This document shows, in pieces, positions 22,218 through 40,484 of a stretch of DNA of 64,000 nucleotides; the first letter of the stretch is position 1, and every line of letters begins with the position of its first letter. Position numbers and translations under genes: made by a program. Below the pieces are notes generated by a model. It was given only the letters and a program-made list of their open reading frames with translations. It searched no databases and had not been told where the DNA came from. Source of the stretch: a virus. Taxonomy: Duplodnaviria; Caudoviricetes. Where the stretch lies: the IMG/VR virus record IMGVR_UViG_3300011577_000001; one strand, given 5' to 3'.

Positions 22218-24596
22218 ATGGCCGCGACCTATACTTACCCATTTGACCCCACCGGTTCCGCGACTACGAACGCCGTTGCTAACGAGCGTCACGTACTGTC
22301 ACCACCGGCGTGGACAGATTACTACTTCATCGTTCCGAAGTATGCACCGTACTTCCGGGACTCGCTCCGGGTAATTCACCGGCCTTCCGGCAAGCTGTTA
22401 GTCGAAGGACAGGATTACCACTGCACCCACTACTTCCACGCAGCGTCTCACGGCGTGGCTCGTCGGGTGTATGGTTCGATCACGTTCCTTGACAAGACCC
22501 TCACCGGTGTTGCCGAGATCAGTTATCAGACCATCGGTGGCGACTGGGTTCTCGATGCGTCGGCCGATCTGACTCGCCTGACCAACACCCAGCTCAACCC
22601 GCGTATCACCACCTGGGAACAAGTGGTAGACGTACCGTATCAGTTCCCACCGATTGACCACGAGTGGAACCTGGAAGACTTGAAAGGCGTTGAAGCCATC
22701 CTTCCGATTCTGGATGAGATGACTGTCGCGATCCGCGAGTCTGCCGGTTCCGACTTCTCCAAGCACATCAACGACAAGAACAACCCTCACTCGGTGACAA
22801 AAGCCCAAGTAGGTTTGGACCTCGTTGAAAACTTCCCGTTGGCTAACCTTCAGGAAGCCCAGGCCGGCGCTACCAACAACCGCTACATGACACCAATGAC
22901 AAGTCGGTCTTTGATCGACTCGTACATGGTGCCTTTGCTGACAGCGCACAAACTGGACGTGGGCAACCCTCACCAAACCACGAAAGCGCAAGTCGGTCTT
23001 GGTAGCGTACAGAACTACCCAATCGCCTCAGCGGTTGAAGCCCGTGCCGGTACGGCGACCGATCGCTACATGACACCGTTGACGGTGAAACAGGCGATTG
23101 ATGCTAACCTCACAGGTTCCATCGAAAGTCACGTTAACAACACCAACAACCCACACGCTACCACCAAGGCGCAGGTTGGGTTGGGGAGCGTTGAGAACTT
23201 CCCTCTGGCCACCACTGACGATGCTGAAGGTGCCAGTCGTAATGACCGGTACATGACGCCGTTGATGACTGCCAAAGAGATCCAGGTGTTGGTAGGTGAG
23301 ACCCTTCAGTTCCACATAGCTGATCGGACTAACCCGCACGGTGTGACGGCTGACCAAATCGGTACCTACACCAAGCAACAGATCGATCAGTCTCTGACGA
23401 GCAAACTCGACCGTCTGGCCACAGCGGCTGACTCGAGCAAGCTGGGAGGGTTTACCTACTCTCAGTTGGTGAACACGATCCTGGGCTCAACCGTTGCGAA
23501 TAGTAACGCCTTGAACGGTTACAGTGCCCAAGACATCATCAACACCATTCAGGCCGGTTCGGTGTCTAACGCTGAACACTTCGACGGTAAAACGTTTGAG
23601 GAAGTCCAAGCACTGATCGTCTCTGACATGATCTCTGCTCGCCAGATTCACATTATCGGTGAGGAACTCACCTACGTCGGTACTGTTGAGAACTGGGTAC
23701 AGATCTTCTCCGTAAACCCTGAATTGGGTGGTGACTTCGAAGACGCAGTCGTATTGGTGACAGGTGGTGTGCCGGGGTCTTTGAATGCCACGACGACCCT
23801 CCTGCGTATCAGTCACGTCAACACTTCGGTGAACGGCGTCCTGCTTGAAGGTAACCCTGCCAACGCACAATTCCGCTACTTGTCAAGTGCCGGTTCCACG
23901 CGAGTCTGGATGCGCACCACCACAGACCTGACCTCGCCTGTAATCACCATCTTGTCCGGTGACGACTTCACCAACTACAACAAGGACGCACCGTTGCTGG
24001 CAACAGCTCCGAACCCGTCAACCCTGTTGCCGTTGCTGAGTTACACGGATGACGCGACCGCAGCGAAGATGTTCCGCTTCCCACAGACGCCAAACGACAA
24101 CAACGTCAAGTACACCAAGTTGGTGGAATTTGAACGTGTGGCCAACTCTCAAGAACACCACTCCTTCATGATCTCTGGGGGTAACCCGATTGGTCAACTG
24201 GATGCGGTGAACGTGGTTGCGGTCAGCCCAACTGGTCAAAGCGTTACGTCAGTGTCTGGTTCCATGGGGACTAACCAGTTCGTCAGTGTCGTACGAACCG
24301 ATCTGTCAAATGGACGGATCTATCACAGTGTCTGGTTGAAGTCAACCGTAGGTCACAGTGAAGTCGTGGTACATGTTCTCACCGACAAAGCCAACGTCAA
24401 CAGTGGCCCGCAGTCGGCAGGTACTACTACCGAGCCGGTTGGGGAAACCCAAACAGTTTTGACTCCGTTGGTTTACGCCAACAATGCAGACCTGTCGACA
24501 ATGTCGGATCAAATCAGTCAGTTCATTCTCGACACTGAAACGGCGCTCAAGCCTGCGGACGTGACGTTCACTCTGGGCACGTGGCCGATCCCTTAA
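22218..24596 (+). CDS. Tail fibre protein
   Basis: GAGGAG RBS; YPFDPTG N-terminus; repeated H-x5-NPH..TKAQVGL..RYMTP units. Confidence 0.75.
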   Translation: MAATYTYPFDPTGSATTNAVANERHVLSPPAWTDYYFIVPKYAPYFRDSLRVIHRPSGKLLVEGQDYHCTHYFHAASHGVARRVYGSITFLDKTLTGVAEISYQTIGGDWVLDASADLTRLTNTQLNPRITTWEQVVDVPYQFPPIDHEWNLEDLKGVEAILPILDEMTVAIRESAGSDFSKHINDKNNPHSVTKAQVGLDLVENFPLANLQEAQAGATNNRYMTPMTSRSLIDSYMVPLLTAHKLDVGNPHQTTKAQVGLGSVQNYPIASAVEARAGTATDRYMTPLTVKQAIDANLTGSIESHVNNTNNPHATTKAQVGLGSVENFPLATTDDAEGASRNDRYMTPLMTAKEIQVLVGETLQFHIADRTNPHGVTADQIGTYTKQQIDQSLTSKLDRLATAADSSKLGGFTYSQLVNTILGSTVANSNALNGYSAQDIINTIQAGSVSNAEHFDGKTFEEVQALIVSDMISARQIHIIGEELTYVGTVENWVQIFSVNPELGGDFEDAVVLVTGGVPGSLNATTTLLRISHVNTSVNGVLLEGNPANAQFRYLSSAGSTRVWMRTTTDLTSPVITILSGDDFTNYNKDAPLLATAPNPSTLLPLLSYTDDATAAKMFRFPQTPNDNNVKYTKLVEFERVANSQEHHSFMISGGNPIGQLDAVNVVAVSPTGQSVTSVSGSMGTNQFVSVVRTDLSNGRIYHSVWLKSTVGHSEVVVHVLTDKANVNSGPQSAGTTTEPVGETQTVLTPLVYANNADLSTMSDQISQFILDTETALKPADVTFTLGTWPIP

Positions 24597-25050: not shown

Positions 25051-28002
25051 ATGGCCAACGTTTCTTTAAGCGTCCCACCTGGCTACTACCTGTCACAACA
25101 AACGGTATCGTGGCTGCTGAGTGCTGACGTAGACTACATCAGTTACACCAGGGACGGACCCGCCCCGGCGATCTCCAAGTACATCGCTTACGACACCCTG
25201 ACTCCTGCTAACCCGTTCATTGCGGTGACTCAGGACGGGAACGGAAACGTTGTGTACGATGGCGGTTTCCCTAAGTTCTACAACGCCAATGCTCCAGAGG
25301 CAGGGATTGACCCCCTGTTCAGTATGGAGTACAAAGGCACCCGTACTGCTGGTGCAACAGGCAACACGTACTACTACGATGCTTTCACAGACGTGTCGGT
25401 AACGATTGCTGCTGGTGACCGGTTGGTGTACGACATCTTGATGGACAGTGCTAACGCTCGCGTTGGTATTGATGCCATCACCAGCGCTAACCCCAACACT
25501 GACCCCAACCATTATTCCTTACGGGATTGGTTGCAACCACAGGGCGTGATCAGAGACCAAAACGGTCTGGCTATCCACCCGGCGACTGACTTGGGTGGTC
25601 GTGGTGTGGGTTCGTGGTATCACCGTGATTTCGATCTGTCTCAAGCGGCTGGCTACACGTTCAACAAGTGGAGTCTGGCGTACGAGGGTGAGATTGCTGG
25701 TACGTTTTACACCCGTTTCAAAGAAGTGTATATCTTGGACAAGAACGGTAAGGTGAAAGCCACACTGTTCAAAGACTCGATCAAGCTTCCGAACTCAACG
25801 TCGGTTGAAGGTGGTGCATCGGGTTACACCGGTACGCAGAAATACATCTACGACCCACGGTCTCGTTTGACGCCTTCCTTTAAGTACCTGTTCAACGCCA
25901 TCCGCTGGGTAGCCAACCCCACCAAGGCGAAGAAGATCTTGGTGCTGGGCGATGTGACCACTGCGGGCTCTTACCCTGTTAAAGGGACTGGTGCCAACGG
26001 GTTTGCAACGTCGATGCAGCGGATTGCTTCGGCCTGTGGTTACACGTGCGACATTAAAGACGTGTCTGACTACACTGGCGGTAAACTCAACTGCACATTG
26101 ACTGAGTTGAATGCGTACGCGTTGGTGATCATGATCTCCACAGCTTACGACCCGAACAACGCTGAGCTGATCACGCCTGCTGCGGTGACTGACTTGGTAA
26201 CGTACCGGTTGCAAGGTGGTGGATTGATCTTCATCACTGACCATGGTAGTAACGTGCTGACTGACGTGAACCAAGTGGCTACGGCGACTGGTGCTGGTTT
26301 CTACGGTACGGCTAACCGAGTGATCTCGAACTTCGGTGCGTTCTTTTCCGGTAACTACGACCGGGTGCCAGTGAACGTAGGCTTCTTGCGTACGAACTAC
26401 GGTGACCATCCGTTGTATTCGGGAATGTCTAATGCTGAGGACATTGCTGCCGGTGGCTCAGAGTCCAAGATTGTACTGGCGACATTTCCCAAGTACTACC
26501 ATGACAACGTTCCGAACCAAACGATCAGCAACAACGGTGTGAACTCAATCAAAGTGATCGCAGTGTTGAAGGACGGTACGGTTGAGACCTACAACTTCAT
26601 CTACGTGATTGCAACCGGCGATTTGCTCCAGTTCCGCAACGAACAAGGGGTGGTCTTCACTGCGTTCCCTGAATCGTTGGACAGTACTCGGGACTTCACC
26701 ATTGAGGTCTTAGGTTCAGGACTTGGGACATTGGTCGGCGACATCCTGCTCAACAACATCAAAGTTGGTGAGATCGGTTACACGGATGCCAAAGGTTCGA
26801 CCTGTGAGTTCTACGTTGGTTCGTCTGCCCTGATCCGGGTGGTTAAAGGTGACGTCTTCACAGCCAAACTGACCAGTCCGTTCCAGTACGCCAAGTCGCT
26901 GAACGTTAACCGTCTGCAACCAGAGATCAAAGGTTCGTCTTTGGCCCAGATCATTCAGAACCTACGTGCGGGTGTCTCCAGTCCCCCGTTGCCTCCGGCG
27001 ACCATCCGTAGTCAGTTGCAGAACTTTAATGCACTGAACCCCGATAATCCACTGACGTTCCAACCCGACTCCTCACGTAACGTGAAGCAGTTGAGACAGA
27101 ACGTGGGGATTGATCCTGCTCTGCCCGATACCACTGGGTATATCTTTGCCAGCAGTGCTGATGCTGCGGCAGCGATGACCACACTGGTGCCGCCGAGTAA
27201 CGCTACGATCTTCAACACGTGGGATCGTTTTGGAGGAAACGCCTTCTTCAAAGGTGGTGTGGGTGCTTCGGGTGAAGCTGCTCAGTGGGTGTGGGATGAA
27301 ACCAAACAAGCTGCGGTGATGTCGGTTAACTCTAGCGGATGGACAGGCTTCTTGTCGTTGGACTTGGTAGAGAACTACGAGCTGGATGTGGTCGTACAGT
27401 CCGATGATGCGGACGACGACATGAACGGTGTGGTCTTGGCCTTCGATCGAACGGATGGTAACAACAACCGTTTGGTTCTTTGTTTGAGTCAGGCTGGTCT
27501 GACACCTGTCGCATCCCACAGTTTGAACATCTACAGTGGTTCTGGGGCTGCGCTCAGGAATTTGATCAACAACAACTTCGCAGGCACTAGCCACGCGTGG
27601 TCGGGTAAGTTCACCCGTGTGAAGGTTTCCCGTAAGGGCGACTACTTCAAAATCTTGTCCAGTAACTGGAACTCGATGGAGTTGAATCCGGCGTCGTTGA
27701 TCGAGTACACATTGACCTCAGACCCACTTGATCAGAAGTTCAAAGGTCCGAAGGCGTGGGGTTTCTGTAACATCTCCCAAGCCAAGTCCTTCTTCAAACT
27801 CAACGACTTCTCCGGTGGTCAGTTGTACGACATCGTGGTTGACGTGCAGGCTAACAAAGTTTACCGCTTCAGTAAGGGCGTATGGGCTGAGTTGCCGGGT
27901 GTGCGAGTCATGGACATTTACGGTGCCCCTCGAGTCTTGAAAAACCAACAGACGGGTAAGTCGTTCCGTTTGAACACTGACGGTACGATCACCGCCCTTT
28001 AA
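25051..28002 (+). CDS. Multidomain tail fibre / receptor-binding protein
   Basis: 983 aa, G/T/N-rich; C-terminal lectin-like beta-sandwich containing DDADDD. Confidence 0.65.
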   Translation: MANVSLSVPPGYYLSQQTVSWLLSADVDYISYTRDGPAPAISKYIAYDTLTPANPFIAVTQDGNGNVVYDGGFPKFYNANAPEAGIDPLFSMEYKGTRTAGATGNTYYYDAFTDVSVTIAAGDRLVYDILMDSANARVGIDAITSANPNTDPNHYSLRDWLQPQGVIRDQNGLAIHPATDLGGRGVGSWYHRDFDLSQAAGYTFNKWSLAYEGEIAGTFYTRFKEVYILDKNGKVKATLFKDSIKLPNSTSVEGGASGYTGTQKYIYDPRSRLTPSFKYLFNAIRWVANPTKAKKILVLGDVTTAGSYPVKGTGANGFATSMQRIASACGYTCDIKDVSDYTGGKLNCTLTELNAYALVIMISTAYDPNNAELITPAAVTDLVTYRLQGGGLIFITDHGSNVLTDVNQVATATGAGFYGTANRVISNFGAFFSGNYDRVPVNVGFLRTNYGDHPLYSGMSNAEDIAAGGSESKIVLATFPKYYHDNVPNQTISNNGVNSIKVIAVLKDGTVETYNFIYVIATGDLLQFRNEQGVVFTAFPESLDSTRDFTIEVLGSGLGTLVGDILLNNIKVGEIGYTDAKGSTCEFYVGSSALIRVVKGDVFTAKLTSPFQYAKSLNVNRLQPEIKGSSLAQIIQNLRAGVSSPPLPPATIRSQLQNFNALNPDNPLTFQPDSSRNVKQLRQNVGIDPALPDTTGYIFASSADAAAAMTTLVPPSNATIFNTWDRFGGNAFFKGGVGASGEAAQWVWDETKQAAVMSVNSSGWTGFLSLDLVENYELDVVVQSDDADDDMNGVVLAFDRTDGNNNRLVLCLSQAGLTPVASHSLNIYSGSGAALRNLINNNFAGTSHAWSGKFTRVKVSRKGDYFKILSSNWNSMELNPASLIEYTLTSDPLDQKFKGPKAWGFCNISQAKSFFKLNDFSGGQLYDIVVDVQANKVYRFSKGVWAELPGVRVMDIYGAPRVLKNQQTGKSFRLNTDGTITAL

Positions 28003-28021: not shown

Positions 28022-29278
28022 ATGAGCACCATTATCATTAAGTACCCCGAAGATCCAACGGGGTTGAACCCGAACAACCTGGTGATCAACGAACCCCATG
28101 ACTTGGGGGAGGGACGTAACCGGGCCTTCGTACCGAACTACGGTTCTTACTTCACCGAGTCGATGATCGTCACGGAAGCGACGACGGGGCGTGTCCTGAC
28201 CAAGGGTGTGCACTACATCGCGGCTCAACTGCAACAAGACGCCAGTATGGCCATGGGCAAAGAAATTTGTGCTGTGGTCATCATCACTGATCCACTCGTG
28301 CGTGACTCGCTGCTCTTTACCTACCAAGTGGTGGGTGGGGTGTTCAGTACCTCAGTCTCTGCGTTGAAGAAAATGATCGAAGACCTCGATCTGGACGAGC
28401 GGGCTGTTGAGTGGGGTGCCATCATTGGTAAGCCTACTGCGTTCCCACCGGCTCCTCACCTTCATGATATCGGTGACCTCTACGGTTTCGAATACCTCGT
28501 GGAAGCGTTGGATGCCCTGCGTAACGCAATCTTGATCGGCGACGAAGCTGCTCACGATGAACTGCGTCAGTACATCCAGTACGAAGACGGTTTGCTGCGG
28601 GACAGCATCACGGCTTTGGATGGTCGCTTCCAAGCGCACGCTCAAGACCAAGGAAACCCGCACCAAACCACCAAAGCTCAGGTCGGCTTAGGTTCGGTTG
28701 ACAACTACGAAACTGCTTCGCAACCCGAAGCAGAAGCTGGTGCGTTGAACAACCGCTTCATGACGCCTCTGCGTACAGCACAAGCCATCTCCCAACAAGC
28801 GTTGGAGCCACTGAACGCACACAAAGCGGACCATAGCAACCCACACCAAACCACCAAAGCTCAGGTCGGTTTGAGTCTGGTGGACAACTACGCCACAGCA
28901 ACCCAAACGGAAGCTGAGCTGGGTGCCTTGGGAACACGGTTCATGACTCCGTTGCGTACAGCACAGGCGATCACTACTCAAGCGATCATCCCGCTCAACG
29001 CTCACATCAACGACAAGAACAACCCACACCAAACCACCAAAGCTCAGGTCGGTCTTGGTAACTTGCCGAACGCTATTACTGACAGCCGTTCAGAGAACAA
29101 CCCTGACACCGTGTTAAGCGGTAAAGGGATGTACGACCACACCAAGTCCGGTGACCACGATGATCGTTACGTAAGGGTTAACGCAACGGTAAGTGGTAGC
29201 GTGAAGGTCGAGTCTGGAATTGCCTACGTTTATGTGACCAATACGTGGCAGCAGTTCTGGCCTCCTCTGTGGCAGTAA
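28022..29278 (+). CDS. Tail fibre protein
   Basis: YPEDPTG N-terminus, paralogous to 22218; three NPHQTTKAQVGL units at a 183-bp period. Confidence 0.75.
   Translation: MSTIIIKYPEDPTGLNPNNLVINEPHDLGEGRNRAFVPNYGSYFTESMIVTEATTGRVLTKGVHYIAAQLQQDASMAMGKEICAVVIITDPLVRDSLLFTYQVVGGVFSTSVSALKKMIEDLDLDERAVEWGAIIGKPTAFPPAPHLHDIGDLYGFEYLVEALDALRNAILIGDEAAHDELRQYIQYEDGLLRDSITALDGRFQAHAQDQGNPHQTTKAQVGLGSVDNYETASQPEAEAGALNNRFMTPLRTAQAISQQALEPLNAHKADHSNPHQTTKAQVGLSLVDNYATATQTEAELGALGTRFMTPLRTAQAITTQAIIPLNAHINDKNNPHQTTKAQVGLGNLPNAITDSRSENNPDTVLSGKGMYDHTKSGDHDDRYVRVNATVSGSVKVESGIAYVYVTNTWQQFWPPLWQ
28661..29052 (+). repeat. 183-bp-period intragenic repeat
   Basis: CACCAAACCACCAAAGCTCAGGTCGG identical at 28661, 28844 and 29027. 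Confidence 0.85.
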
Positions 29279-29328: not shown

Positions 29329-29835
29329 ATGGTTAAAAGCTTGCAATTTGAGTTAGGTCTGTGTGAAGCTGATTTACACATGGATGCCGTGCTCTCCAGC
29401 CACTATCCGTACGAACAAGGTCAGGTGTGGGTGATTCATCCTTCGGGGTTATCCACCCAAGCCTTGAACGCCATGGACGTAATAAAGTGCGAGGACTGTA
29501 CGATTAAGGTAGAAGGTTACGAGAAGCTCAGTCGTCGTTTGTTTGACGCTGTACAATCAGTTGCCCAAAACCTGAACCACAATGGTCCTGTGACGTGTCA
29601 CCTCTTCCGCTCTCCCAAAGGCGCTGCCAGTTTTCCTGCTCACACTGATCCTGACGACGTGGTGTTGTACATCGTGTCGGGGACCAAGACAATTGAGTTG
29701 GAGGACCGAGTAGCGACTCTGGGTGCGGGAGAGGTCCTTTATTTGCCGCGTGGAACGATCCATAGGGCTGTGAACCATGACGCATCACTGATGCTCAGCA
29801 TCGGTCTTGAACTTTTTACTGTTGAGAAACTATAA
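29329..29835 (+). CDS. JmjC/cupin 2OG-Fe(II) protein hydroxylase (RoxA/NO66-like minimal domain)
   Basis: FPAHTDPDDV (HxD), GTK, GEVLYLPRGTIHRA (distal His). Confidence 0.8.
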   Translation: MVKSLQFELGLCEADLHMDAVLSSHYPYEQGQVWVIHPSGLSTQALNAMDVIKCEDCTIKVEGYEKLSRRLFDAVQSVAQNLNHNGPVTCHLFRSPKGAASFPAHTDPDDVVLYIVSGTKTIELEDRVATLGAGEVLYLPRGTIHRAVNHDASLMLSIGLELFTVEKL

Positions 29836-30876
29836 ATGGCCCACAAAACGATCTACGTTAAAACCACTGGGGCGTGTAACCTCGATTGTAAGCACTGCTT
29901 CACCAACGGTCGAGATGGCGATAAAACGCAGTTTGATCCGGTGGTAGTGGGCGACTGGCTCGAAGACTACATGTCGCGCCATAATCCGAATGACACTTCG
30001 TACCACATGGAGTTCCACGGTGGTGAGCCGTTTCTGGTGCCGCTGGAGAAACTGCAAGTGGTGGCTGATCGTTTCTACGGTCGCCATAACGTGTCTATGT
30101 GTGCCAACAGCAACTTGACGTTTAAGTTGTACCCGGCCCACATCGAGTTCATTAAGAAGTACTTCAACAGTTACATTGGGACCAGTTGGGACCACTGGAT
30201 TCGTTGGAGTAACCAGAAACAATTCGAGTTGTGGAAATCAAACCTTGCGTTGTTGAACTCGCACGGAATTGGTATCAGTTTGAAAGTGTCGGTCTCAAGG
30301 GAACTGATTGCCAGTACGGCAGATTGGTTCATCGACCAGATCGAACAGTTCGGGGTGGACACTGTCGCTTTGGAACGTTTGACCCGAGACGGTAGCGCCG
30401 AAGACAACTCTGCTATCTTCCCGGACAACGAGGAGCAGGACAACTGGTACCTCGCTCTGTACCTGCGCTATAAAGAGCGTAAGCCCAACTTCACCATTCG
30501 GACGCTAGACATCCTTGAGCAGAAGCTTAAGCAAGGTCTGGTGAAAGTAGACACCAACTGCCGCAACTGCGAACAGAACATGGTGACGATGAACTCGAAC
30601 GGTACCCTCGGTTGCTGTCCTAACGTGGCGACCACGCGTGCACACGCTACTCTAGAACAAGGGGTAGACGCATTCTTCAATTCTGATAGCCGTGCCACCG
30701 ACATCGCCGAAGAGCTGACTTGGGGTGACACGTGCCTTACGTGCGACGTGTTCGATTTGTGTGGTGGCGATTGCCATCAACTACCGTGGCAGAAAGGTCG
30801 GTGTGGGGGTTTAAAGAACACCCTGCGGTACCTCTCTGGTCGCAATCTACAGACCAATTTGATATTCAAGGTGTGA
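29836..30876 (+). CDS. Radical SAM/SPASM-domain protein (rSAM-1)
   Basis: CNLDCKHC, FHGGEP, C-terminal CRNC..CCP..CLTCDVFDLCGGDC..C. Confidence 0.92.
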   Translation: MAHKTIYVKTTGACNLDCKHCFTNGRDGDKTQFDPVVVGDWLEDYMSRHNPNDTSYHMEFHGGEPFLVPLEKLQVVADRFYGRHNVSMCANSNLTFKLYPAHIEFIKKYFNSYIGTSWDHWIRWSNQKQFELWKSNLALLNSHGIGISLKVSVSRELIASTADWFIDQIEQFGVDTVALERLTRDGSAEDNSAIFPDNEEQDNWYLALYLRYKERKPNFTIRTLDILEQKLKQGLVKVDTNCRNCEQNMVTMNSNGTLGCCPNVATTRAHATLEQGVDAFFNSDSRATDIAEELTWGDTCLTCDVFDLCGGDCHQLPWQKGRCGGLKNTLRYLSGRNLQTNLIFKV

Positions 30877-30877
30877 T

Positions 30878-31561
30878 ATGGGTAACATTACCAAGGCTGA
30901 CATTGTCGCCGCCGTCAACACCCGCTTCCGCGATAAAGCTAACGCTGGTATCGTTTGGGGTACAAACACGTATCCTGCCTACGGTTTAGCGTCGTGGTTC
31001 AAAGGAACAACCGCTGGAGTGACAGACTCATTCACCGTGGCTGACATTCCAAACGTGAACCCGAAAGCCGCCGAAGTGGTTGCTGCACTGCAAACCTTTG
31101 TGAACAAGTTTGCGTTTGTTCGTAAAGCACGCATCACCATCTACTACTCCACAGACTACGGTCGCTATCTGGAGACTGACAAAACCGCGATTGGTTACAT
31201 GGCTGACAGCGCTGGTGACATTGCTTCGGTAGTGTCGCTACCAGAGATCTCCAAAGACGCTGTGTTGAGTTTGACCAAGTTCAACGACGCCGTGGACCGT
31301 CTGTATGACAACTACGTGGCGCAGTGTCGCAACGTCGCTCTGGAAAAGAGCAGCAGTCACTGTCACACCAGTTGCCACTCGAGCTGTCACTCCAACGTGC
31401 CGGTCTGCCACTCGAGCTGTCACAGTAACGTGCCGGTCTGCCACTCGAGCTGTCACAGTAACGTTGTTTGTCACAGTAGCTGTCATGACAGTTGCCACAG
31501 TAACGTTGTTTGTCACAGTAGCTGTCATGACAGTTGCCACTCCGCCCGTGGTCGTCGTTAA
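30878..31561 (+). CDS. Cys/His-repeat protein, putative substrate of the rSAM/oxygenase cluster
   Basis: ~160-aa N-domain, then 13 C-H-x-[S/N/A] units and terminal RGRR; starts 1 bp after rSAM-1. Confidence 0.8.
   Translation: MGNITKADIVAAVNTRFRDKANAGIVWGTNTYPAYGLASWFKGTTAGVTDSFTVADIPNVNPKAAEVVAALQTFVNKFAFVRKARITIYYSTDYGRYLETDKTAIGYMADSAGDIASVVSLPEISKDAVLSLTKFNDAVDRLYDNYVAQCRNVALEKSSSHCHTSCHSSCHSNVPVCHSSCHSNVPVCHSSCHSNVVCHSSCHDSCHSNVVCHSSCHDSCHSARGRR
31361..31540 (+). repeat. Nested in-frame tandem repeats (33-bp and 42-bp units)
   Basis: Near-identical 33-bp unit at 31373 and 31406, partial at 31439; exact 42-bp duplication 31454-31495 / 31496-31537. Confidence 0.9.
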
Positions 31562-31575
31562 TTCGGAGTATCCCC

Positions 31576-32307
31576 GTGGAAACCATTTACACTACCGCCC
31601 CGATCTCGCTACCTGACCTCAAACGTAAGTTCACCGAAGACGTTGAGTTCGTCATCGACTACGACAACAGCAAGTTCAAAGGAAAGATCCTGATTACCTA
31701 CCTCAGTAACTTGGACATCAAGTGCAAGCTGGAGATCAAGGACCCTGACCAAGCACTGGCCTTGCTGGAAGAGTACCTGAACATCCCGACGCTGGTGAGT
31801 GTGTTCGACCTGGAAGACTTGGCGATCAACGTATTGCTCGAGTACCAAGGTAAACCGAACAAGCTCAACATTGAAGTAGGCGACTTCATCGAGCGCAACA
31901 AAACCGCGCTGGAGCGTTGGGTACGTCGGGTTAACTCGCTGTTGTTGTACACCTTGTACATCAACGATCAGTTCCGTCCGATGGTTGAGGAGTTCCCCCA
32001 AGACCTCGATGACGGGGTAGTGGGAATCAACTTCGTACACCTGATCAAACACGAACTGTTCCCGGTGTTGCTGGAGAACATTCAACCGTCGTTGATTACG
32101 TGGAACAAAACGTTCTTCAACGACTACGTGTTCGCCGGTAACAACCTGTTCACCTACTTCGCAGTGAAAGAGAACCCGCTGTTCTTGGGTCTGTTGTGCG
32201 GTCTGGACGGTCAACGAAGCGAACTATCCATCATCCCGTCGATGGAGACGGTCGAACAAGCCTGCGTAACACGCATCAAGGAGATCGCTCATGTTTCATC
32301 TGTTTAA
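31576..32307 (+). CDS. Hypothetical protein of the rSAM cluster
   Basis: GGAG RBS then GTG at 31576; overlaps the next gene. Confidence 0.75.
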   Translation: METIYTTAPISLPDLKRKFTEDVEFVIDYDNSKFKGKILITYLSNLDIKCKLEIKDPDQALALLEEYLNIPTLVSVFDLEDLAINVLLEYQGKPNKLNIEVGDFIERNKTALERWVRRVNSLLLYTLYINDQFRPMVEEFPQDLDDGVVGINFVHLIKHELFPVLLENIQPSLITWNKTFFNDYVFAGNNLFTYFAVKENPLFLGLLCGLDGQRSELSIIPSMETVEQACVTRIKEIAHVSSV

Positions 32308-33346: not shown

Positions 33347-34354
33347 ATGAACCTGATACCGCTAGTTGACATCCTCGAAGAGAAGAAAGGGAACACCAAA
33401 GAGGCACACTTGATTTTCTTTGAGAAGTGTAACTTGCGGTGTTCGTTCTGTCACCAAGACCACGATTCCGAAGTGGGACTGTCTGCGGACGAGATCCTTG
33501 AAAAGGTCAATACCCTGATCGAGGTGAGCGACCCTGAAGTCCCAATCGTGATCAACCTCACCGGTGGGGAGTTGTTCTCGGACAATATCCCTGACTGGAT
33601 GTTCGGCTACTACTTGATGGCGGGACAGTTGTTGCTCCGTCATTTTAAGCGAGCGAAGTTGGTCTGGGGGACGAACTTGGTTTACAGCGATCTCTTCCGC
33701 GTGATGCGGTTGATGACGATGCTCAAGGCTGAGGCATCCAAAGACCAGAACGTGTGTCTGGCAACGTCCTACGATCCAGCAGGGCGTTTCACTGCGGGTA
33801 ACCGGGATCTGTTTCTGCGCAGTCTCATGGTGGTTAAGCCCTACGTAGAAACAGTGAACGTGGTGATCACTCGCCAGAACATCCAACTGTTCCTGACAGG
33901 TAATGAAGGCAAAGAGTTTGAGTGGTTGTGTAGCAACTTCGACGTGTACTTTGACCACTACATTCCCTCGGAGCGGTACGAAGAGCACCAGCCTACAGAG
34001 TCGGCTATCAGTCAGCTCTATCTGACGCTCGACAAGAAGTATCCCAACTCCTACCCCATCAAAGCATGGAAGGAGAATCGGTTCAATGACACGACCTGTC
34101 GCTCCACGAAGATCATCAACAAGGATGGTGTCGTGACGACGTGTTGGTCAGAAGCCGGTAAAGATGCCATCCTCGATGAAGGGGCTGGTCTGAAGGCTAA
34201 GCACGAGGCGGAAGAACGCTTCTTAAACCACTATGGTTGTTTGGCCTGTGAGTACTATCAACGGTGTGGCTTGCGGTGTTTCTTGCACCACAGCTTCGTT
34301 GAGACGGACTCTAAGGAATGCCAAATCAAAGTGATGTTTGACCAAATCCTGTAG
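33347..34354 (+). CDS. Radical SAM protein with C-terminal Cys cluster (rSAM-2)
   Basis: CNLRCSFC, LTGGELF, CLACEYYQRCGLRC..C. Confidence 0.9.
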   Translation: MNLIPLVDILEEKKGNTKEAHLIFFEKCNLRCSFCHQDHDSEVGLSADEILEKVNTLIEVSDPEVPIVINLTGGELFSDNIPDWMFGYYLMAGQLLLRHFKRAKLVWGTNLVYSDLFRVMRLMTMLKAEASKDQNVCLATSYDPAGRFTAGNRDLFLRSLMVVKPYVETVNVVITRQNIQLFLTGNEGKEFEWLCSNFDVYFDHYIPSERYEEHQPTESAISQLYLTLDKKYPNSYPIKAWKENRFNDTTCRSTKIINKDGVVTTCWSEAGKDAILDEGAGLKAKHEAEERFLNHYGCLACEYYQRCGLRCFLHHSFVETDSKECQIKVMFDQIL

Positions 34355-34375: not shown

Positions 34376-35464
34376 GTGGATCTGATTATCAAACCAACCG
34401 TGAAGTGTAACTTCAAGTGCACCTTCTGCTCCAGTACCCACCTTTCGGAAGACCCGAAGGAGATTGTGGAACTGGAAGCGATCGAGCGGTTCATCAAACG
34501 TTTTCCAGAAACCCGTACGCTGATCATCAACGGTGGCGATCCACTGATGATGCCTCCTAGCTACTACTGGAAGATCATCGAGATCTTGGACCGACTGGGG
34601 TCTGAGGCGTGCATCTCGTTTACCACTAACCTCTGGGCGTTCTACAAGAAGCCTGAGATGTGGGTGGAGTTGTTCCGACATCCTCGTGTGGGTGTGGGGA
34701 CGTCTTTCCAGTACGGCAATGCTCGCTTGAAAGGCGACGGTACACCATTCACAGAAGAAGAGTTCTTGAAGATCTCGGACATGATGTTGGAGATGGTCGG
34801 TCATCGTCCAGACTTCATCAGCGTGATCGACGAAGAGAACGTTCACACCGTGCTCGATACCGTGCGACTGGCTAAGCGTCTGGGACTGGTGGCTAAGATC
34901 AACTATGTCAGTGCCTCTGGACCTGAAGTGGTGAACCGTGGTGTGACTATGGGTAGCTGGAACCGCATGTACACCCAAGCGGACATCTACGAGAAATACA
35001 TCGAGATCTACGATGCAGGTTTGGGTGAGTGGGAATATAACACGCAGCAAATGACCAAGCGTCTGCGCAACGGTCAGACTACGTGTCCGCTGTCCCGGAC
35101 GTGCGACAGTGGTATCCGTGCGTTGCAGCCGGGTGAGAACTACTACTCCTGTGGTAGCTTCGGGGACGACGGGGAATACCCGATCGACTTCGACCGTGAA
35201 ATGAAAGGTGAATTCTTCACACCTTTGCAGAACCAGATCGAACTGCACTCGATGAAAGAGAGTTGCAATATCTGCCCGATGTTTATCATCTGTAATGGCT
35301 GCAAGAAAACCATTGCGGACACCAAACGTCTGGGTCAGGTTGAACGTCACTGTAAGAAGATGAAGTCACTGGCACCACGCATCATTGAAATCAATGGCAT
35401 GACGGGCGTTCTCGAACCTACACCGTACGAAGACGAATCGTTGCCCCTGATCGCTAAGGGATAA
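34376..35464 (+). CDS. Radical SAM/SPASM-domain protein (rSAM-3)
   Basis: IKPTVKCNFKCTFC, NGGDPL, CPLSRTC..C..CNICPMFIICNGC..HC. Confidence 0.92.
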   Translation: MDLIIKPTVKCNFKCTFCSSTHLSEDPKEIVELEAIERFIKRFPETRTLIINGGDPLMMPPSYYWKIIEILDRLGSEACISFTTNLWAFYKKPEMWVELFRHPRVGVGTSFQYGNARLKGDGTPFTEEEFLKISDMMLEMVGHRPDFISVIDEENVHTVLDTVRLAKRLGLVAKINYVSASGPEVVNRGVTMGSWNRMYTQADIYEKYIEIYDAGLGEWEYNTQQMTKRLRNGQTTCPLSRTCDSGIRALQPGENYYSCGSFGDDGEYPIDFDREMKGEFFTPLQNQIELHSMKESCNICPMFIICNGCKKTIADTKRLGQVERHCKKMKSLAPRIIEINGMTGVLEPTPYEDESLPLIAKG

Positions 35465-35469
35465 CTTGT

Positions 35470-36417
35470 ATGAAACCCCCTCTTAATCTTTCGATCAACT
35501 GCTGGTACTATTGTAACTTCAGTTGTTCGTTCTGTTACCTCACCCCGGAGCAGTTGAATGATCGACAACTCTTGCCTCTGGAGGTGTTGGAGCAGCGTGT
35601 GGACGAGGTGATGACGCAGTATCGCATCAACCACGTTGACATCTATGGAGGGGAAGTTCTACTCTTGCCACCTGAGTACCTACAAGCGGTGAAGGGGATC
35701 TTCCATGCTCGTGGGGTGGACGACATCGTGTTGGTGACAAACCTCTCGGTGGTGAATGAAGCAGCACTGGATGAAGACTTCGAACTGTCGGTGTCATATG
35801 ACGGCTTGGCACGTGAGAAGTCAGAACTGGTGTTCACCAACATGTTGATGCTTACGCGACAGTTCACAATCCTCTCGCTCTGTGGGCGGGAGTTTCTGGA
35901 CAAGGTCTCAGTCGATGACTACGTACAAACGTTGAACCTGCTGGGTCACCTGAAATGCGTGGAGATCAAACCGTACAGCTCCAACCAAGCCAACAACCAT
36001 CCCGTGACCAATCGGGAGTTCGAGGAGTTTGTGTGGGCGGTGCTGTCTCACCCGGAACGTAACTTCTACATGGAGAACGAAACCCTGATCAAACAAGCGG
36101 TCGCAGGGATTCGTAATTCATTCAGCGATGACCACATCTACATCACCCCGAGTGGGGAATTTGCGGTGCTGGAGTTCGACCAAGCTGAGCGGGAGTACTT
36201 CCTGCCGGTGGACGGATTGGCTGGCTACCAAGCATGGTGTGAAGCTGAGAAGCAACGGGTGACTACCAACCCATTCTGTGCCAGTTGTGAATTTCTAGGC
36301 ACGTGTCTATCAGAACACTTACGCGACGTGAAATCCATGGACAACTCGTGTAACGGGTTTAAGGGATTGTTGTTGCGGTGGGAGGAAGAATGTTCGTCCG
36401 GCATCGGCAACGACTAG
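35470..36417 (+). CDS. Radical SAM protein with C-terminal Cys cluster (rSAM-4)
   Basis: CNFSCSFC, YGGEVL, VTNLS, CASCEFLGTCLSEH..SCNG. Confidence 0.9.
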   Translation: MKPPLNLSINCWYYCNFSCSFCYLTPEQLNDRQLLPLEVLEQRVDEVMTQYRINHVDIYGGEVLLLPPEYLQAVKGIFHARGVDDIVLVTNLSVVNEAALDEDFELSVSYDGLAREKSELVFTNMLMLTRQFTILSLCGREFLDKVSVDDYVQTLNLLGHLKCVEIKPYSSNQANNHPVTNREFEEFVWAVLSHPERNFYMENETLIKQAVAGIRNSFSDDHIYITPSGEFAVLEFDQAEREYFLPVDGLAGYQAWCEAEKQRVTTNPFCASCEFLGTCLSEHLRDVKSMDNSCNGFKGLLLRWEEECSSGIGND

Positions 36418-37418
36418 AGATCACACTCGATCTGTTTCGAGGTTGTGGTCATCATTGTGCAGGGTGTATGATCGACAAGTCGCTGGGTGGGGACATCTCT
36501 GACATCCCTGACCTGTTGGCGTTGATTAGAGAAATGACTGCGGCAGGGTACGTGGCGTTCGACTTAGGTGTTGGACCTACGGACTACATGACATCAACCA
36601 ACACGCAAGAGGTGATGACGAACACCACTTTCCGTGAGATGGCGCAGTTGTTTCATCAGGTGACGTTTAACGCTGCGTTCTTAGACACTCGCATGGAGAA
36701 CTACGGTGCCATGTGTGTGGACATTGATGTAGCGTGTCCTGATAAACCCATTCGTTTTCTAATTCCGGCTGTACCGTCTCATTTCAAGAATGAGAAGTTC
36801 GGCTTAATGATAAAAGAGAAACTGGAGTACATCCAAGAACACTTGGTGGTGGCCCGTTTGAATGAGGCAGGGTTTGTTGTGACCTGTACTCGAGAAACTG
36901 TAGATGAACGTTTTGAAGAATACTTGGCCAACGGGTTTGAGATTGAATTCCCTGTGGACAAAGATGACATCCTCAACATCCCGTATGGTCGAGCGCCTAA
37001 CCGAGATCTCATGGTCGCGCAGAACGTGCGACGGGTGTCCCACCGGATCAGTTCCTTTTATGCGGGGCTCAGCGGTGAAGACGAAAGAAGACGTAATCCT
37101 GACTTGCATTACGACACTGGTACGATGGTCAATCTGCTATATACTGGTGGCAAGCTTTATTGGGTACCGTTCTTAAAGGACGACTGTCCGTTCCTTGACG
37201 ACGACTTCGTGATCCAGCGCCCCTGGACTATGGAGAACTTACTAACGGTCCGTAACGAGGCTCGTGAGCGCTCTATGGACTACTTAGCCGACACTGGGTG
37301 CATGGCGTGTCCACACTTGAGCAGTTGCATGGAAAAGGGCATCACCAACATCATGCAAAAGCTCTCCATCAAAGATTGTTTAGTAGGACTTGAGCATGAT
37401 TCCGACGCGCATTGCTAA
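36390..37418 (+). CDS. Divergent radical SAM-like protein (rSAM-5)
   Basis: CGHHCAGC (Cx3Cx2C); GPTD in place of GGEP; CMACPHLSSC..C. Confidence 0.7.
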   Translation: MFVRHRQRLEITLDLFRGCGHHCAGCMIDKSLGGDISDIPDLLALIREMTAAGYVAFDLGVGPTDYMTSTNTQEVMTNTTFREMAQLFHQVTFNAAFLDTRMENYGAMCVDIDVACPDKPIRFLIPAVPSHFKNEKFGLMIKEKLEYIQEHLVVARLNEAGFVVTCTRETVDERFEEYLANGFEIEFPVDKDDILNIPYGRAPNRDLMVAQNVRRVSHRISSFYAGLSGEDERRRNPDLHYDTGTMVNLLYTGGKLYWVPFLKDDCPFLDDDFVIQRPWTMENLLTVRNEARERSMDYLADTGCMACPHLSSCMEKGITNIMQKLSIKDCLVGLEHDSDAHC

Positions 37419-38436
37419 ATCACTGAACCTCACCCTGGAAGTTCTCAAAGGGTGTGGTTACAGTTGTCCCGGCTGTACGGTGGAGAAAGACTCAGCCCCG
37501 GTGAACATCTCTGACGCTGACGCGACAGCACTGGTGACGATGGCTGAAGACTTGATCGAGAATGACTTCCGCTTGCTGGAGTTTCGATTGGGTCCGACAG
37601 ACATCACCAGCTCGTCCAATTGGCGAGACGTGTTAGCCCATCCATTGATTCACGGGTTGGCTCAGCACTACCGTGCACTCAACGTGTCATTGACCATGCT
37701 CAGTGATCGAGGACTGGAAGAGTTGGCAGCCGACATAGACCCCTTGATGGCGGGAAAGAAACTCAGTGTCTCAATCCCGATGGCGTTAAAGCAAACCTCG
37801 AATCAAAAATACCTCGGGGAGTTACGTAAGCGTATTCTGTACTTTAAGAGTCTGTTTAAGGAAACCGACTTTAACCGCGTTTATGCAAACTTCAACTTGA
37901 TTGATGACAACATCACTCATTTAAACGAAGGGACGTACCAAGCAGCCCACACATTAGACTTGGGCGTCCCTGTCTTCTCGGAGTTCCCGTTTCCACACAC
38001 CCGTAAAGGGATGGGGAACCTGTTGGTACTCAACCAACTGAACCGCGACTTGTACACCTTCTCAGAGTTTCTCAAGGCCCAAGTGAACACGAAGATCTAC
38101 CGCCCGTTGATCCCGAACGTGGTGGATGGCTTTGAGTTTGTCTACCGCAGCGGTGTGTTGTATCACGCCCCAGTGGTGTCAGAGAACCTCCCGATCTTTG
38201 AGTCAGGCTTTGAACTCGCCCGACCATGGAATGCAGAGTCAGTGTTAGGGTTTCGGGAGCAGGGTTACTACGAAGACTTAGTGGCGCTAGCTGAGCATCC
38301 TGAGTGTGGTAGTTGCTGTTTCTTGGACTACTGTTCTCGTGGGTCAGTGAAGCCTTTGATGGACTTGCTAGGGCGTGCAGATTGCCTAACGGGTTTGCGT
38401 AACCGTTGGGACCTCCAACTACACCGACAGGATTAA
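37396..38436 (+). CDS. Divergent radical SAM-like protein (rSAM-6), paralog of rSAM-5
   Basis: CGYSCPGC; GPTD; CGSCCFLDYC..C. Confidence 0.7.
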   Translation: MIPTRIAKSLNLTLEVLKGCGYSCPGCTVEKDSAPVNISDADATALVTMAEDLIENDFRLLEFRLGPTDITSSSNWRDVLAHPLIHGLAQHYRALNVSLTMLSDRGLEELAADIDPLMAGKKLSVSIPMALKQTSNQKYLGELRKRILYFKSLFKETDFNRVYANFNLIDDNITHLNEGTYQAAHTLDLGVPVFSEFPFPHTRKGMGNLLVLNQLNRDLYTFSEFLKAQVNTKIYRPLIPNVVDGFEFVYRSGVLYHAPVVSENLPIFESGFELARPWNAESVLGFREQGYYEDLVALAEHPECGSCCFLDYCSRGSVKPLMDLLGRADCLTGLRNRWDLQLHRQD

Positions 38437-38440
38437 CAAC

Positions 38441-38914
38441 GTGGATATAGTGATCATAGACGACGTCGAGTTCAGCGACGAGTTGATGGCGATCTGCATG
38501 TGTCAACAGAACAAAGCGTACGTGGATGAACCGGAGATCAGTGCTTTCATTGATGCGGTGATTCTACCCCACGTTAAGCGTCACGCCAATGCACACCCGG
38601 ACATCTATGCACAGGCGTCTCACGTACACATCAGTGACCTCGGGCTGGAACCACACACCCACGAACCGTACTCATTGGTGGCGGTGTTGTACTTCTTCGA
38701 CTCACAAGGCGAACTGGTCATTACCGATGGCTCACATCCGAACATACAGCCCCGTAGAGGCCGTTTGGTGTTGATGGGCGGGACTACATCGCATTACGTC
38801 ATTCCGTCAACTGGGCGTGAACTCAGGATGTCGCTGGTGACGAACTTCCACCACGAACAAGTGCAACCGTTTCCTGAAACCAAAGAGGTCTCGGGGAAAA
38901 TCGCGTACACCTAA
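38441..38914 (+). CDS. 2OG-Fe(II) oxygenase superfamily protein
   Basis: PHTH, AVLYF, PRRGRLVLM, SHYV, RMSL (RxS 2OG-binding motif). Confidence 0.75.
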   Translation: MDIVIIDDVEFSDELMAICMCQQNKAYVDEPEISAFIDAVILPHVKRHANAHPDIYAQASHVHISDLGLEPHTHEPYSLVAVLYFFDSQGELVITDGSHPNIQPRRGRLVLMGGTTSHYVIPSTGRELRMSLVTNFHHEQVQPFPETKEVSGKIAYT

Positions 38915-38924
38915 GGATACCCGT

Positions 38925-39482
38925 ATGGATTACTTGGCACCGTGGCCAACCGTGATTGGTGTCACGAACATTGCTGGTCAGATTGACTTGGACTGTTTGT
39001 CCGATGAAGTCTTTAACCTGAACCTGTTGACCAAAGGTGAAGACGCCAGTCAACAGTGGGTAACCCACGAAGCGGTTCCGTTGATCATGCAGTTGCGTGA
39101 CGAGATCATCAACCCGCTGGTGGAACAGTACTCGCTGGAGCAATGGGAATACCCGTTGTCAGGCTACCGGGTGGAAACCAACGCAAAGTGGATTCCAGAA
39201 GGTGAAGGACTGTATCCCCATCTACATCCGGGCAGTAACCTTTCGGCGATCATCTACCCGAAAGACTCACCGTCGGGTATCACGTTGTTTGACCCTCGGA
39301 TGAACGCCTCCCGTGGCTACCCCAAACCGATTCGTCGGGGCTACATGAAACCGGTCACGATCTCACCCAAAGCCGGTGACGTTCTGATCATCCCAAGCTA
39401 CATCCAACACAGTGTCTCTTATGTGAAAGAGGAAGTGCGGTTGTCACTGCTCTTTGAGTATTACTTCGCAGGAGAGGTCTGA
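38925..39482 (+). CDS. 2OG-Fe(II) oxygenase superfamily protein
   Basis: PHLHPGSNLSAIIY, DPR, PKAGDVLIIPSYIQHSV, RLSL. Confidence 0.85.
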   Translation: MDYLAPWPTVIGVTNIAGQIDLDCLSDEVFNLNLLTKGEDASQQWVTHEAVPLIMQLRDEIINPLVEQYSLEQWEYPLSGYRVETNAKWIPEGEGLYPHLHPGSNLSAIIYPKDSPSGITLFDPRMNASRGYPKPIRRGYMKPVTISPKAGDVLIIPSYIQHSVSYVKEEVRLSLLFEYYFAGEV

Positions 39483-39919
39483 TGGCAGAACCCGAATACA
39501 AACAGTACCAACGACTGTACAACCAGTTGGTCACTGAACACACGGACGACTTCAGTTTAATGGAGTACGTCGAATCTCCTGAGATTGTGCAGAACGCTTT
39601 ACACTACTTCAAAGGGCAGTTCTTCCCGTTGATCTATCCGGCGAAGTCCTACGCTGTGGCAGTGATCTACGCGTACCTTATCTTCAAAGAGTATGGGATT
39701 CCAATCCGCGACACCTTGATGGACGACGACCTGTTCTTGGGTCAGGACGAGTACTTCGTTCCTTACTACAAAGACTCGGCGTCTTACGAACAGATCTTGG
39801 CTGCGCTGGATTACATGCCGAACTGGATCACGCTTGGTTGGGCTCCGAAAACGGCAGAGTACTTCCGACTGGAGTGCACGGCGGCGGGGATCGAAGAAGT
39901 CATGAACAACCTTACCTGA
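39482..39919 (+). CDS. Hypothetical protein of the rSAM cluster
   Basis: TGATG coupling; 145 aa, Tyr-rich and acidic. Confidence 0.75.
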   Translation: MAEPEYKQYQRLYNQLVTEHTDDFSLMEYVESPEIVQNALHYFKGQFFPLIYPAKSYAVAVIYAYLIFKEYGIPIRDTLMDDDLFLGQDEYFVPYYKDSASYEQILAALDYMPNWITLGWAPKTAEYFRLECTAAGIEEVMNNLT

Positions 39920-39929
39920 GTACCTACCC

Positions 39930-40484
39930 ATGGAACTGATTCAACCTTGGAACACGTCGATCCTCAAAGCGAACGTGACCCACTTGGTCAACGTCGAAGC
40001 CATTGCGGCTGAGATCCTGACCCTTCACAGCTTGTCTCCTCAAGAGTCTCGGACAGCGTACAAAGTGACGCCGGAAGAGTTCCCCAAACTGTGCGACTTC
40101 CGTGACCGCGTGGTAACTGGTCTGGTGAAAGAGTACCTCAAGCAAACCATGAACTTCACCCTGACCGAGTTCACCGTCGATACGTTCGGTAAGTGGTTTG
40201 TCAAAGGTTCTGACCTTGCACCCCACACCCACGGCAACAGTGGCATCACCAGTATCTTCTATCCAGAAGACTACGAGTCAGGGATGAGCATCTTTGACCC
40301 GCGCGGTAATGCTTCGCGTGGCTACCCTCGAGCGATTCGTGACGAGCACTTTGCTCCGTACCACGTCTTCCCAAAGGCGGGTGACCTATACATCTTCCCG
40401 GCGTTCTTACAACACTACGTTCCAACCGTCAAAGATGACCTGCGTCTGTCGTTGATCAACGACTTCATGTTCGTTGGGATCTAA
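39930..40484 (+). CDS. 2OG-Fe(II) oxygenase superfamily protein, paralog of 38925
   Basis: PHTHGNSGITSIFY, DPRGNASRGYP, PKAGDLYIFPAFLQHYV, RLSL. Confidence 0.85.
   Translation: MELIQPWNTSILKANVTHLVNVEAIAAEILTLHSLSPQESRTAYKVTPEEFPKLCDFRDRVVTGLVKEYLKQTMNFTLTEFTVDTFGKWFVKGSDLAPHTHGNSGITSIFYPEDYESGMSIFDPRGNASRGYPRAIRDEHFAPYHVFPKAGDLYIFPAFLQHYVPTVKDDLRLSLINDFMFVGI

Follow-up and report, generated by a model that had tools for sequence, protein, structure and literature searches.

Comparison with known radical SAM systems

In the bacterial HXS antiphage system the folded protein HxsA carries His-Xaa-Ser repeats and is matured by the radical S-adenosylmethionine (SAM) enzymes HxsB and HxsC, with HxsD also belonging to the system (Li et al., Nat Commun 2026, PMC13128918), and a covalent change of +8 Da has been mapped on the SHRSS motif of HxsA (PMC13128918). 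Here we describe a phage protein that invites comparison with this system. The DNA analysed, referred to as the window, is a stretch of 64,000 nucleotides forming part of a 240-kb virus record (IMG/VR IMGVR_UViG_3300011577_000001; Duplodnaviria, Caudoviricetes), and the protein in question, P0001, ends in an array of Cys-His-containing tetrads followed by RGRR, for which reason we call it and its relatives CH proteins. Its gene lies behind tail-fibre genes and within a cassette of radical SAM and oxygenase genes (Table 1), and we consider it probable, though by no means certain, that the tail serves as a core, borne on a protein, for modification by the cassette, the product being part of the phage's fibre module for host contact. 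To our knowledge the substrates for which radical SAM maturation has been described are small peptides and, in bacteria, a few proteins, and we know of no case among virus-particle components or in the attack apparatus of predators.

The HXS system is the closest precedent. Like HxsA, the CH protein is a full-size folded protein with tandem repeats of the H-x-S type, which is present in most tetrads of P0001, and with several radical SAM genes alongside. The resemblance is however one of principle only, since the Hxs, CXXX-repeat maturase and anSME models all fail. HXS is bacterial and defensive, HxsA has a signal/processing region and a peptidoglycan-binding domain, and its repeat unit contains no Cys, whereas in P0001 a Cys opens every unit, the motif occupies the very C-terminal end and closes with RGRR, and the cassette encodes six radical SAM proteins (rSAM1 to rSAM6) and four oxygenases. 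Against the HxsB model (TIGR03978, cut-off 370 bits) rSAM1 scores 20.1 and rSAM4 17.9 bits, against the HxsC model (TIGR03977, cut-off 267.9 bits) rSAM3 scores 25.8 and rSAM2 16.5 bits, and P0001 falls outside the HXS families (TIGR03976-03979), having no NCBIfam, Pfam or PHROG match, no peptidoglycan-binding domain and a hydrophilic N-terminus.

The CXXX-repeat system (TIGR04115; target family PF27846, tSAM_targ_Cxxx_rpt) likewise combines tandem Cys residues of period four with a neighbouring radical SAM/SPASM enzyme, but the CH family differs in usually having three tetrads, in the obligatory His after the Cys and in the attached folded domain. In addition, rSAM1 reaches just 18.5 bits (E=0.0011) against TIGR04115, the cut-off of which is 350 bits. 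Two independently expanded family members, P0129 and P0136, have only faint precomputed matches to PF27846, and P0001, its tail, P0129 and P0136 gave no Pfam match at E<=1 in the copy searched, which may lack PF27846. A third comparison is with the anaerobic sulfatase-maturating enzyme anSME (TIGR03942), which acts on Cys or Ser of folded protein substrates and, as a SPASM enzyme, oxidises the Cys: it is the top NCBIfam neighbour of rSAM1 (45 bits) and rSAM3 (48.5 bits), aligned almost end to end, and the final tetrad together with the following Arg (C-x-x-x-R) has its Arg at position +4, which is also where the sulfatase motif has one. The anSME cut-off is however 349 bits, and in the (C/S)-x-(P/A)-x-R motif position +2 must be Pro or Ala, but is mostly Gly, Ser or Thr in the tail (Ala 3%). 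Nor is a sulfatase encoded near the CH gene.

The best NCBIfam matches of rSAM1 are anSME, AmcB, PapB, YhhB and DynA, with FxsB also among the best, and all are far below cut-offs. Going by these profile matches, the nearest relatives of rSAM1 appear to be maturases modifying Cys or His in peptides and proteins, with chemistries comprising Cys oxidation in proteins (anSME), Cys thioethers (PapB) and links from aromatic residues to beta-carbons (AmcB, YhhB, FxsB). The triceptide maturases (HtkB/HaaB, AmcB/YhhB/FxsB/GrrM), which form links from ring carbon to beta-carbon, are of interest in that H-x-[S/N/A] fits their aromatic-X-X motif, and HtkB is reported to make a link from His-C2 to Lys-C-beta (PMC11499958). 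The scores of rSAM1 are however at least 10-fold below the cut-offs, and known triceptide substrates are short leader-core peptides, none with a conserved Cys before each His.

Such leader-core precursors give rise to peptides that are ribosomally synthesised and modified post-translationally (RiPPs), and the long N-terminal part and short conserved C-terminal core of CH proteins indeed follow the classic RiPP layout. The notion that P0001 gives rise to a RiPP-like effector, diffusible or intracellular, be it antibacterial, anti-defence or for superinfection exclusion, with the N-domain as a very large leader cut off after modification, is furthermore in agreement with the HXS effector, which has HxS repeats and acts on phage DNA entry after radical SAM maturation and N-terminal processing (PMC13128918). 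It is nonetheless highly improbable, considering that P0001 is a folded protein of 227 residues, that no protease, transporter or other exporter, or immunity gene is found in the window cassette or the related loci examined, that CH proteins, those of Bdellovibrionota included, lack a signal peptide, that their N-domains are folded and span 110-350 residues, and that the fusion of one family member to a fibre chaperone domain, described below, points to a structural trimer.

The CH protein and the conservation of its tail

The P0001 gene begins 1 nucleotide past the stop codon of rSAM1, to which it is translationally coupled. The initial annotation, made from the sequence of the window, had described the last 66 residues as 13 C-H-x-[S/N/A] tetrads with a terminal RGRR, and this is exact: the array covers residues 162-223, starting with CHTS, CHSS and CHSN and continuing with groups of two, two, three and three tetrads, set off by the spacers VPV, VPV, VV and VV, and is followed by RGRR, the only place in these 66 residues where Lys or Arg occurs. 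The folded-looking domain of about 160 residues suspected ahead of the array is borne out as well. In an AlphaFold2 (AF2) model based on an alignment of 64 family members, the predicted local distance difference test (pLDDT) is above 90 for residues 1-162, including a helix at 132-151 and a strand at 155-162, and drops below 50 over most of the tail, so that P0001 appears to consist of a genuine folded domain and a tail without confident monomer structure.

Relatives were retrieved by word-indexed and exhaustive HMMER searches, yielding 69 and 95 cluster representatives and 159 proteins not chosen by motif, and by a back-translated DNA pattern of the tail, which matched at least 120 viral contigs and 47 bacterial contigs. 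All searches pooled, the C/H/R signature used for collection is present in 288 unique proteins, which make up a large, unnamed family to which P0001 belongs. Members retrieved by HMMER are typically 170-200 residues long, and 133/159 have exactly three CH pairs, with RGRR as C-terminus in 110/159 and RSRR in 21/159. The family ending CHxS-CHxS-CHxS-RGRR is near-invariant while the N-domains diverge. The fourth tetrad position, which was outside the selection pattern, is Ser, Asn or Ala in 95-99% of the 288 proteins, the Gly of RGRR is kept in 85%, and the residue preceding the first Cys is mostly Val or Ile. Identity to the nearest relatives of the window is 32-41% for the CH protein, 68-75% for rSAM1 and 61-78% for rSAM2 and rSAM3, the N-domain of the CH protein being the fastest-evolving part of the cassette. 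The tail is under far stronger selection than the remainder of the protein. A core of 16 residues that is conserved, on a carrier that evolves fast, and that is found in at least 120 viral contigs as well as on chromosomes of predators, makes for a concrete and testable target. A few members have a GDGPG-type linker as their C-terminus, or lack RGRR and stop at CHGS[I/L].

The family falls into two classes. Class I proteins, to which P0001 corresponds in gene order, are about 170-300 residues long and are encoded in the order cupin, rSAM1, CH, unkA, unkB, rSAM2 and onward. Class II proteins of about 126 residues are encoded as a tandem pair directly after a giant fibre-like open reading frame (ORF), followed by genes of the rSAM5/6 type with other enzymes further on, and never by unkA or unkB. 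When the two classes were aligned by hhalign, a probability of 99.1 was obtained over the last ~59 columns only. The common region corresponds to residues 119-227 of P0001, that is helix, strand and tail, and excludes residues 1-118. The conserved unit is therefore longer than the tail, and since the classes share only the helix-strand-tail part it looks like a recognition element and core mounted on interchangeable domains.

Lineage-specific expansion of the array

With three tetrads as the usual and ancestral state, the 13 tetrads taken as the defining feature in the initial annotation turn out to be a lineage-specific expansion by recent in-frame tandem duplication, and this expanded array is what the window newly contributes to the family. 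In the DNA, Tandem Repeats Finder detects a 33-bp unit repeated 2.8 times (94% matches) and a 42-bp unit repeated 2.1 times (100%), and given this degree of identity at least the last duplication must be very recent. The window clade includes four relatives at 79-89% identity, and arrays of 11-15 tetrads are confined to it. Both Cys codons and both His codons occur in the P0001 array while the residues stay fixed, and across the five proteins of the clade Cys-His is kept in 65/65 tetrads, with variation at the third tetrad position. Arrays of 9-13 CH units have arisen independently in three other family proteins, and one further protein has six units. Taken together, the tandem DNA repeats, the complete retention of Cys-His and the presence of the signature in 288 proteins argue that the array is no chance feature. 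Other ORFs across 31238-31616, on the opposite strand or in other frames, are by-products of the repeats, and a scan for promoters and terminators found sites no commoner than in shuffled sequence.

The enzymes have not changed along with the array. The locus of a relative with 11 tetrads (L188) has the enzyme set of the window gene for gene, and the same set is found in Pseudomonas phage pPa_SNUABM_DT01 (DT01), the CH protein of which has three tetrads. Since the core thus grew to 13 tetrads next to an unchanged enzyme set, the enzymes may well read the tetrad as a repeatable unit, and the lineage with its 11-15 tetrads offers a natural series for studying iterative enzyme action.

The cassette in phages and predatory bacteria

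The initial annotation had tied the tail to radical SAM enzymes and held that homologs without such neighbours would speak against this link, which has proved very strong. Among the matches listed, comprising 118 viral loci and considering 6 kb around the CH gene, a radical SAM homolog is present at 112/118, the six exceptions being mostly contigs cut off on the relevant side. A cupin homolog is found at 62/118, unkA at 84/118 and unkB at 39/118 of these loci. The conserved cassette, comprising a cupin, up to six or more enzymes resembling radical SAM/SPASM proteins, 2OG oxygenases and three unknown proteins, mostly comes right after tail-fibre genes. The gene order of the window recurs in RSF1, FLC6, DT01, Atu_ph07 and one 174-kb JGI contig, and the arrangement is thus found in cultured phages of unrelated groups, namely DT01 and the Chiangmaivirus phages of Ralstonia and Burkholderia, and also in the 490-kb Agrobacterium phage Atu_ph07 and in Sinorhizobium phage Phosso. 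Papers on phages carrying the cassette describe the radical SAM genes as accessory, numerous, "highly unusual" or possibly involved in DNA repair, and name no substrate (PMC8541153, PMC12390700). The CH tail goes unmentioned in the literature found, and a search for the motif string matched only unrelated German words.

Some cassettes carry insertions. Those of Chiangmaivirus are interrupted by a GIY-YIG nuclease, an HNH endonuclease and two dihydrofolate reductase genes (RSF1, locus L001, 2570-3487 and 10572-11861; FLC6, locus L003), and a metagenomic phage contig of 174 kb has two IS605/TnpB-type ORFs inserted in its cassette (L004, 15825-17018 and 19141-20358).

Among the 47 bacterial matches approximately 39 are genuine, and about 27 of these come from assemblies of Bdellovibrionota, some of the contigs being 1.3-2.8 Mb long. 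The remaining 8/47 are chance matches, located away from an ORF end or in low-complexity CHCH runs. A radical SAM neighbour is present at ~36/39 genuine bacterial loci, and unkB homologs likewise occur at Bdellovibrionota loci. The Bdellovibrionota cassettes are chromosomal with housekeeping genes on their flanks: in a Halobacteriovoraceae contig of 1.29 Mb (L179), electron-transfer flavoprotein and serine dehydratase genes flank a cassette that includes a 413-residue protein with a Peptidase_S74 fibre chaperone domain, and in a Bacteriovoracaceae contig of 2.84 Mb (L181) a gene for a 2355-residue RCC1/Big_2 surface-type protein comes after the CH gene and unkA. A different case is a 4.3-kb contig in the assembly of a Dysosmobacter segnis isolate (L157), on which unkA, unkB, rSAM2 and rSAM3 accompany a CH tail identical to that of the window-clade protein P0006; the likely origin of this contig is phage DNA, either a contaminant of the bacterial genome or co-assembled with it.

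The enzymes of the window cassette

The source of the window is a phiKZ-like jumbo phage with DT01 as its nearest isolate, and the gene of the phiKZ internal head protein lies at 41240-42796. The six radical SAM proteins all carry CX3CX2C in the N-terminal part and, as auxiliary-cluster motif, CX2CX5C(X3C) in the C-terminal part (in rSAM1 at residues 14 and 300, the latter as CX2CX5CX3C, with GGEP as well), and judged by these motifs they belong in the broad class of SPASM/twitch enzymes that modify peptides and proteins. Of the six, rSAM3 and rSAM4 alone pass the Pfam Radical_SAM cut-off, rSAM5 and rSAM6 have no Pfam match, and rSAM1 scores 23.6 bits against the SPASM model TIGR04085, just below its cut-off of 27 bits. 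Homologs of rSAM5 and rSAM6 are the enzymes found directly after the twin CH genes of class II, often in 3-6 copies.

Three Cys residues together with His are able to ligate Fe-S clusters, and the cassettes encode up to nine Fe-S enzymes in need of such clusters. The CH tail might on this account carry an Fe-S cluster or iron and act as a scaffold or donor that loads the co-encoded radical SAM and iron enzymes rather than as their substrate. The N-domains are however fast-evolving and variable in size, unlike a housekeeping scaffold, and there is no similarity to the IscU, IscA and Nfu families. Furthermore, the fusion to a fibre chaperone domain and the position directly after giant fibre genes do not fit, and the expansion to 13 tetrads would have no obvious use. 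The array also contains overlapping C-x3-C-H strings reminiscent of c-type haem sites, but CH proteins have no signal peptide and no recognised haem-maturation gene is found in the window cassette or the related loci examined. Both an Fe-S scaffold and a haem-c site are unlikely, and to the scaffold we would give hardly any chance.

Table 1. Position of the CH gene, its parts and the surrounding genes in the window
Feature	Position	Strand	Remarks
Tail-fibre / virion structural genes	22218-24596, 25051-28002, 28022-29278	+	PHROG tail-fibre, tail-protein and virion-structural families, E down to 1e-146
Cupin/JmjC-like oxygenase, head of cassette	29329-29835	+	Pfam Cupin_2 1.2e-11, JmjC_2 3.1e-11
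rSAM1, radical SAM/SPASM enzyme directly upstream of CH gene	29836-30876	+	phrog_1802 7.4e-50
CDS of Cys-His-tailed protein P0001	30878-31561	+	ATG start, 227 codons, TAA stop
Class-specific N-terminal part of folded domain, residues 1-118	30878-31231	+	pLDDT >90
Conserved helix-strand element ahead of tail, residues 119-161	31232-31360	+	Common to all family classes (hhalign)
Array of 13 C-H-x-[S/N/A] tetrads with VPV/VV spacers, residues 162-223	31361-31546	+	
Tandem DNA repeats behind expanded array	31373-31540	+	Tandem Repeats Finder
RGRR terminus and TAA stop	31547-31561	+	
unkA, 243 aa	31576-32307	+	GTG start after GGAG; phrog_20767 1.2e-40; downstream partner of class I proteins
unkB, 351 aa	32291-33346	+	No Pfam, PHROG or NCBIfam match
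rSAM2	33347-34354	+	CX3CX2C at residue 28, CX2CX5CX3C at residue 298; phrog_1802 3.3e-32
rSAM3	34376-35464	+	Pfam Radical_SAM 1.2e-12; phrog_1802 7.6e-54
rSAM4	35470-36417	+	Pfam Radical_SAM 2.5e-08; Cys motifs
rSAM5, divergent radical-SAM-like paralog	36378-37418	+	GPTD replaces GGEP; CX3CX2C at residue 23, CX2CX5C at residue 308
rSAM6, divergent radical-SAM-like paralog	37390-38436	+	CX3CX2C at residue 22, GPTD, C-terminal Cys cluster
Three 2-oxoglutarate (2OG)-Fe(II) oxygenase genes	38441-38914, 38925-39482, 39930-40484	+	Pfam 2OG-FeII_Oxy_3, 2OG-FeII_Oxy_5; phrog_81
unkC	39482-39919	+	phrog_20737
Tail-associated peptidoglycan hydrolase right after cassette	40541-41230		PG_binding_1 domain and baseplate-hub/peptidase-like part

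Relation to fibres and possible function

Several observations connect CH proteins to tail fibres. The CH gene of the window is found downstream of three tail-fibre or virion structural genes as assigned by PHROG, the cassette of Atu_ph07 follows a giant virion protein, and class II loci follow a giant fibre-like ORF. Furthermore, one family member, P0057 (L186, 10001-10948), has four CH tetrads behind the family N-domain, then a Gly/Asp linker, and ends in a Peptidase_S74 domain (44.8 bits) instead of RGRR, its gene being situated in the usual cassette context. In phage fibres and spikes Peptidase_S74 acts as a self-cleaving chaperone for trimerisation, and this fusion is the best available hint that CH proteins may be trimeric structural proteins in which the CH tail forms the mature C-terminus. 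A search for longer fused forms of the family found one 511-residue member only. S74-containing fibres and spikes, and the fibre-like adhesins of Bdellovibrio, thus resemble the present system with respect to the S74 domain of P0057, the S74 protein in the Halobacteriovoraceae cassette and the fibre genes upstream in the window. P0001 differs in having neither an S74 domain nor a recognisable fibre repeat, and its N-domain matches no solved fibre structure. Of the two roles first suggested for the N-domain, an unusually large leader or a virion anchor, it is the anchor that gains indirect support from the location behind fibre genes and from the S74 fusion.

How the tail might come to be modified can be outlined as follows. 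The CH gene would encode the protein substrate of the surrounding cassette, composed of a variable folded carrier, the conserved helix-strand element and a Cys-His-x-Ser core that normally has three tetrads plus RGRR. After translation, and in the cytoplasm, the radical SAM/SPASM-type enzymes would modify the tail while it is still unfolded, at the side chains of Cys, His and Ser/Asn, and the cupin/JmjC and 2OG oxygenases would probably take part. Crosslinks of the thioether or His-carbon type, oxidised residues or both would be the likely products. The protein so finished would then serve, probably as a trimer, in the fibre module with which the phage contacts its host, and in predatory bacteria in an equivalent module. 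Whereas the anatomy of the protein, its conservation throughout the family, the gene order and the expansion of the repeats can be read directly from the sequences compared, it is from these that we infer the modification and its chemistry, the formation of trimers and the location in the virion.

The fibre context would however also be compatible with a simpler function, in which the tail is left unmodified and binds metal, for example as a Zn, Fe or Cu ladder of Cys-His pairs contributed by three chains at the tip of a fibre or spike, the enzymes acting elsewhere. Comparable metal sites are known, with iron bound at HxH motifs in the needle of the T4 long fibre and Zn in PAAR tips. The invariant positions of the tail are its Cys and His, the Cys spacing is regular, the one S74-fused member agrees with a position of this kind, the 13 units of P0001 would merely lengthen the ladder, and the absence of a confident monomer fold in the AF2 tail is what would be expected of a structure dependent on metal or oligomerisation. 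Metal binding leaves unexplained, on the other hand, the near-constant company of the radical SAM cassette and the coupling to rSAM1, and likewise the restriction to Ser, Asn or Ala at the fourth tetrad position and the conserved RGRR, and the cassette showed no further candidate for a substrate that is conserved and has a shared motif. This makes an unmodified metal-binding tail the main alternative, but a doubtful one.

Enzymatic modification of the tail, which we continue to favour, has its own difficulties. Invariant Cys and His would be equally expected of a plain metal site, and six to nine radical SAM enzymes are many for a core of 16 residues, so some may act elsewhere, for example on fibres. 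No RiPP-recognition domain is recognisable in any radical SAM protein of the window. The N-domain of P0001 has no known fold, with nothing at E<=0.001 when Foldseek was run against the PDB, a best Z of 3.8 against solved structures in the VIA wide search and a TM-score of at most 0.28 in the ESM Atlas, while matches of the model in BFVD are uncharacterised phage relatives only. The AF2 model of unkA (pLDDT 86.6) is likewise without a match among solved structures (Foldseek none; VIA best Z 4.7, for residues 1-55 only), and a protein-atlas feature search gave no usable match. Finally, the text of the Atu_ph07 supplement contains no virion-proteome entry for the CH protein, gp170 being unlisted in it, and the papers on RP12/RP31 and DT01 have no relevant entry either.

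In its widest form the proposal would be that phages of several unrelated lineages and predatory Bdellovibrionota alike employ dedicated enzymes to covalently finish a host-contact fibre protein, by means of radical SAM crosslinks or oxidations on C-terminal Cys-His-x-Ser units. We put this forward as a tentative idea that we would not yet call probable. If it is correct, virus particles and predator adhesins undergo a maturation without described counterpart, for which the array of 13 units is a natural multi-core substrate. Should the tail indeed be crosslinked or oxidised, this would amount to a new enzyme chemistry on Cys-His motifs and to a new layer in the building or stabilisation of phage receptor-binding machinery.

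As a last observation on the fibres themselves, the genes at 22218-24596 and 28022-29278 encode the same N-terminal domain (phrog_2163, E ~1e-123) and share short repeated fibre motifs, and since the fibre of 28022-29278 is shorter and ends soon after the shaft repeats, it may need a separate tip protein.

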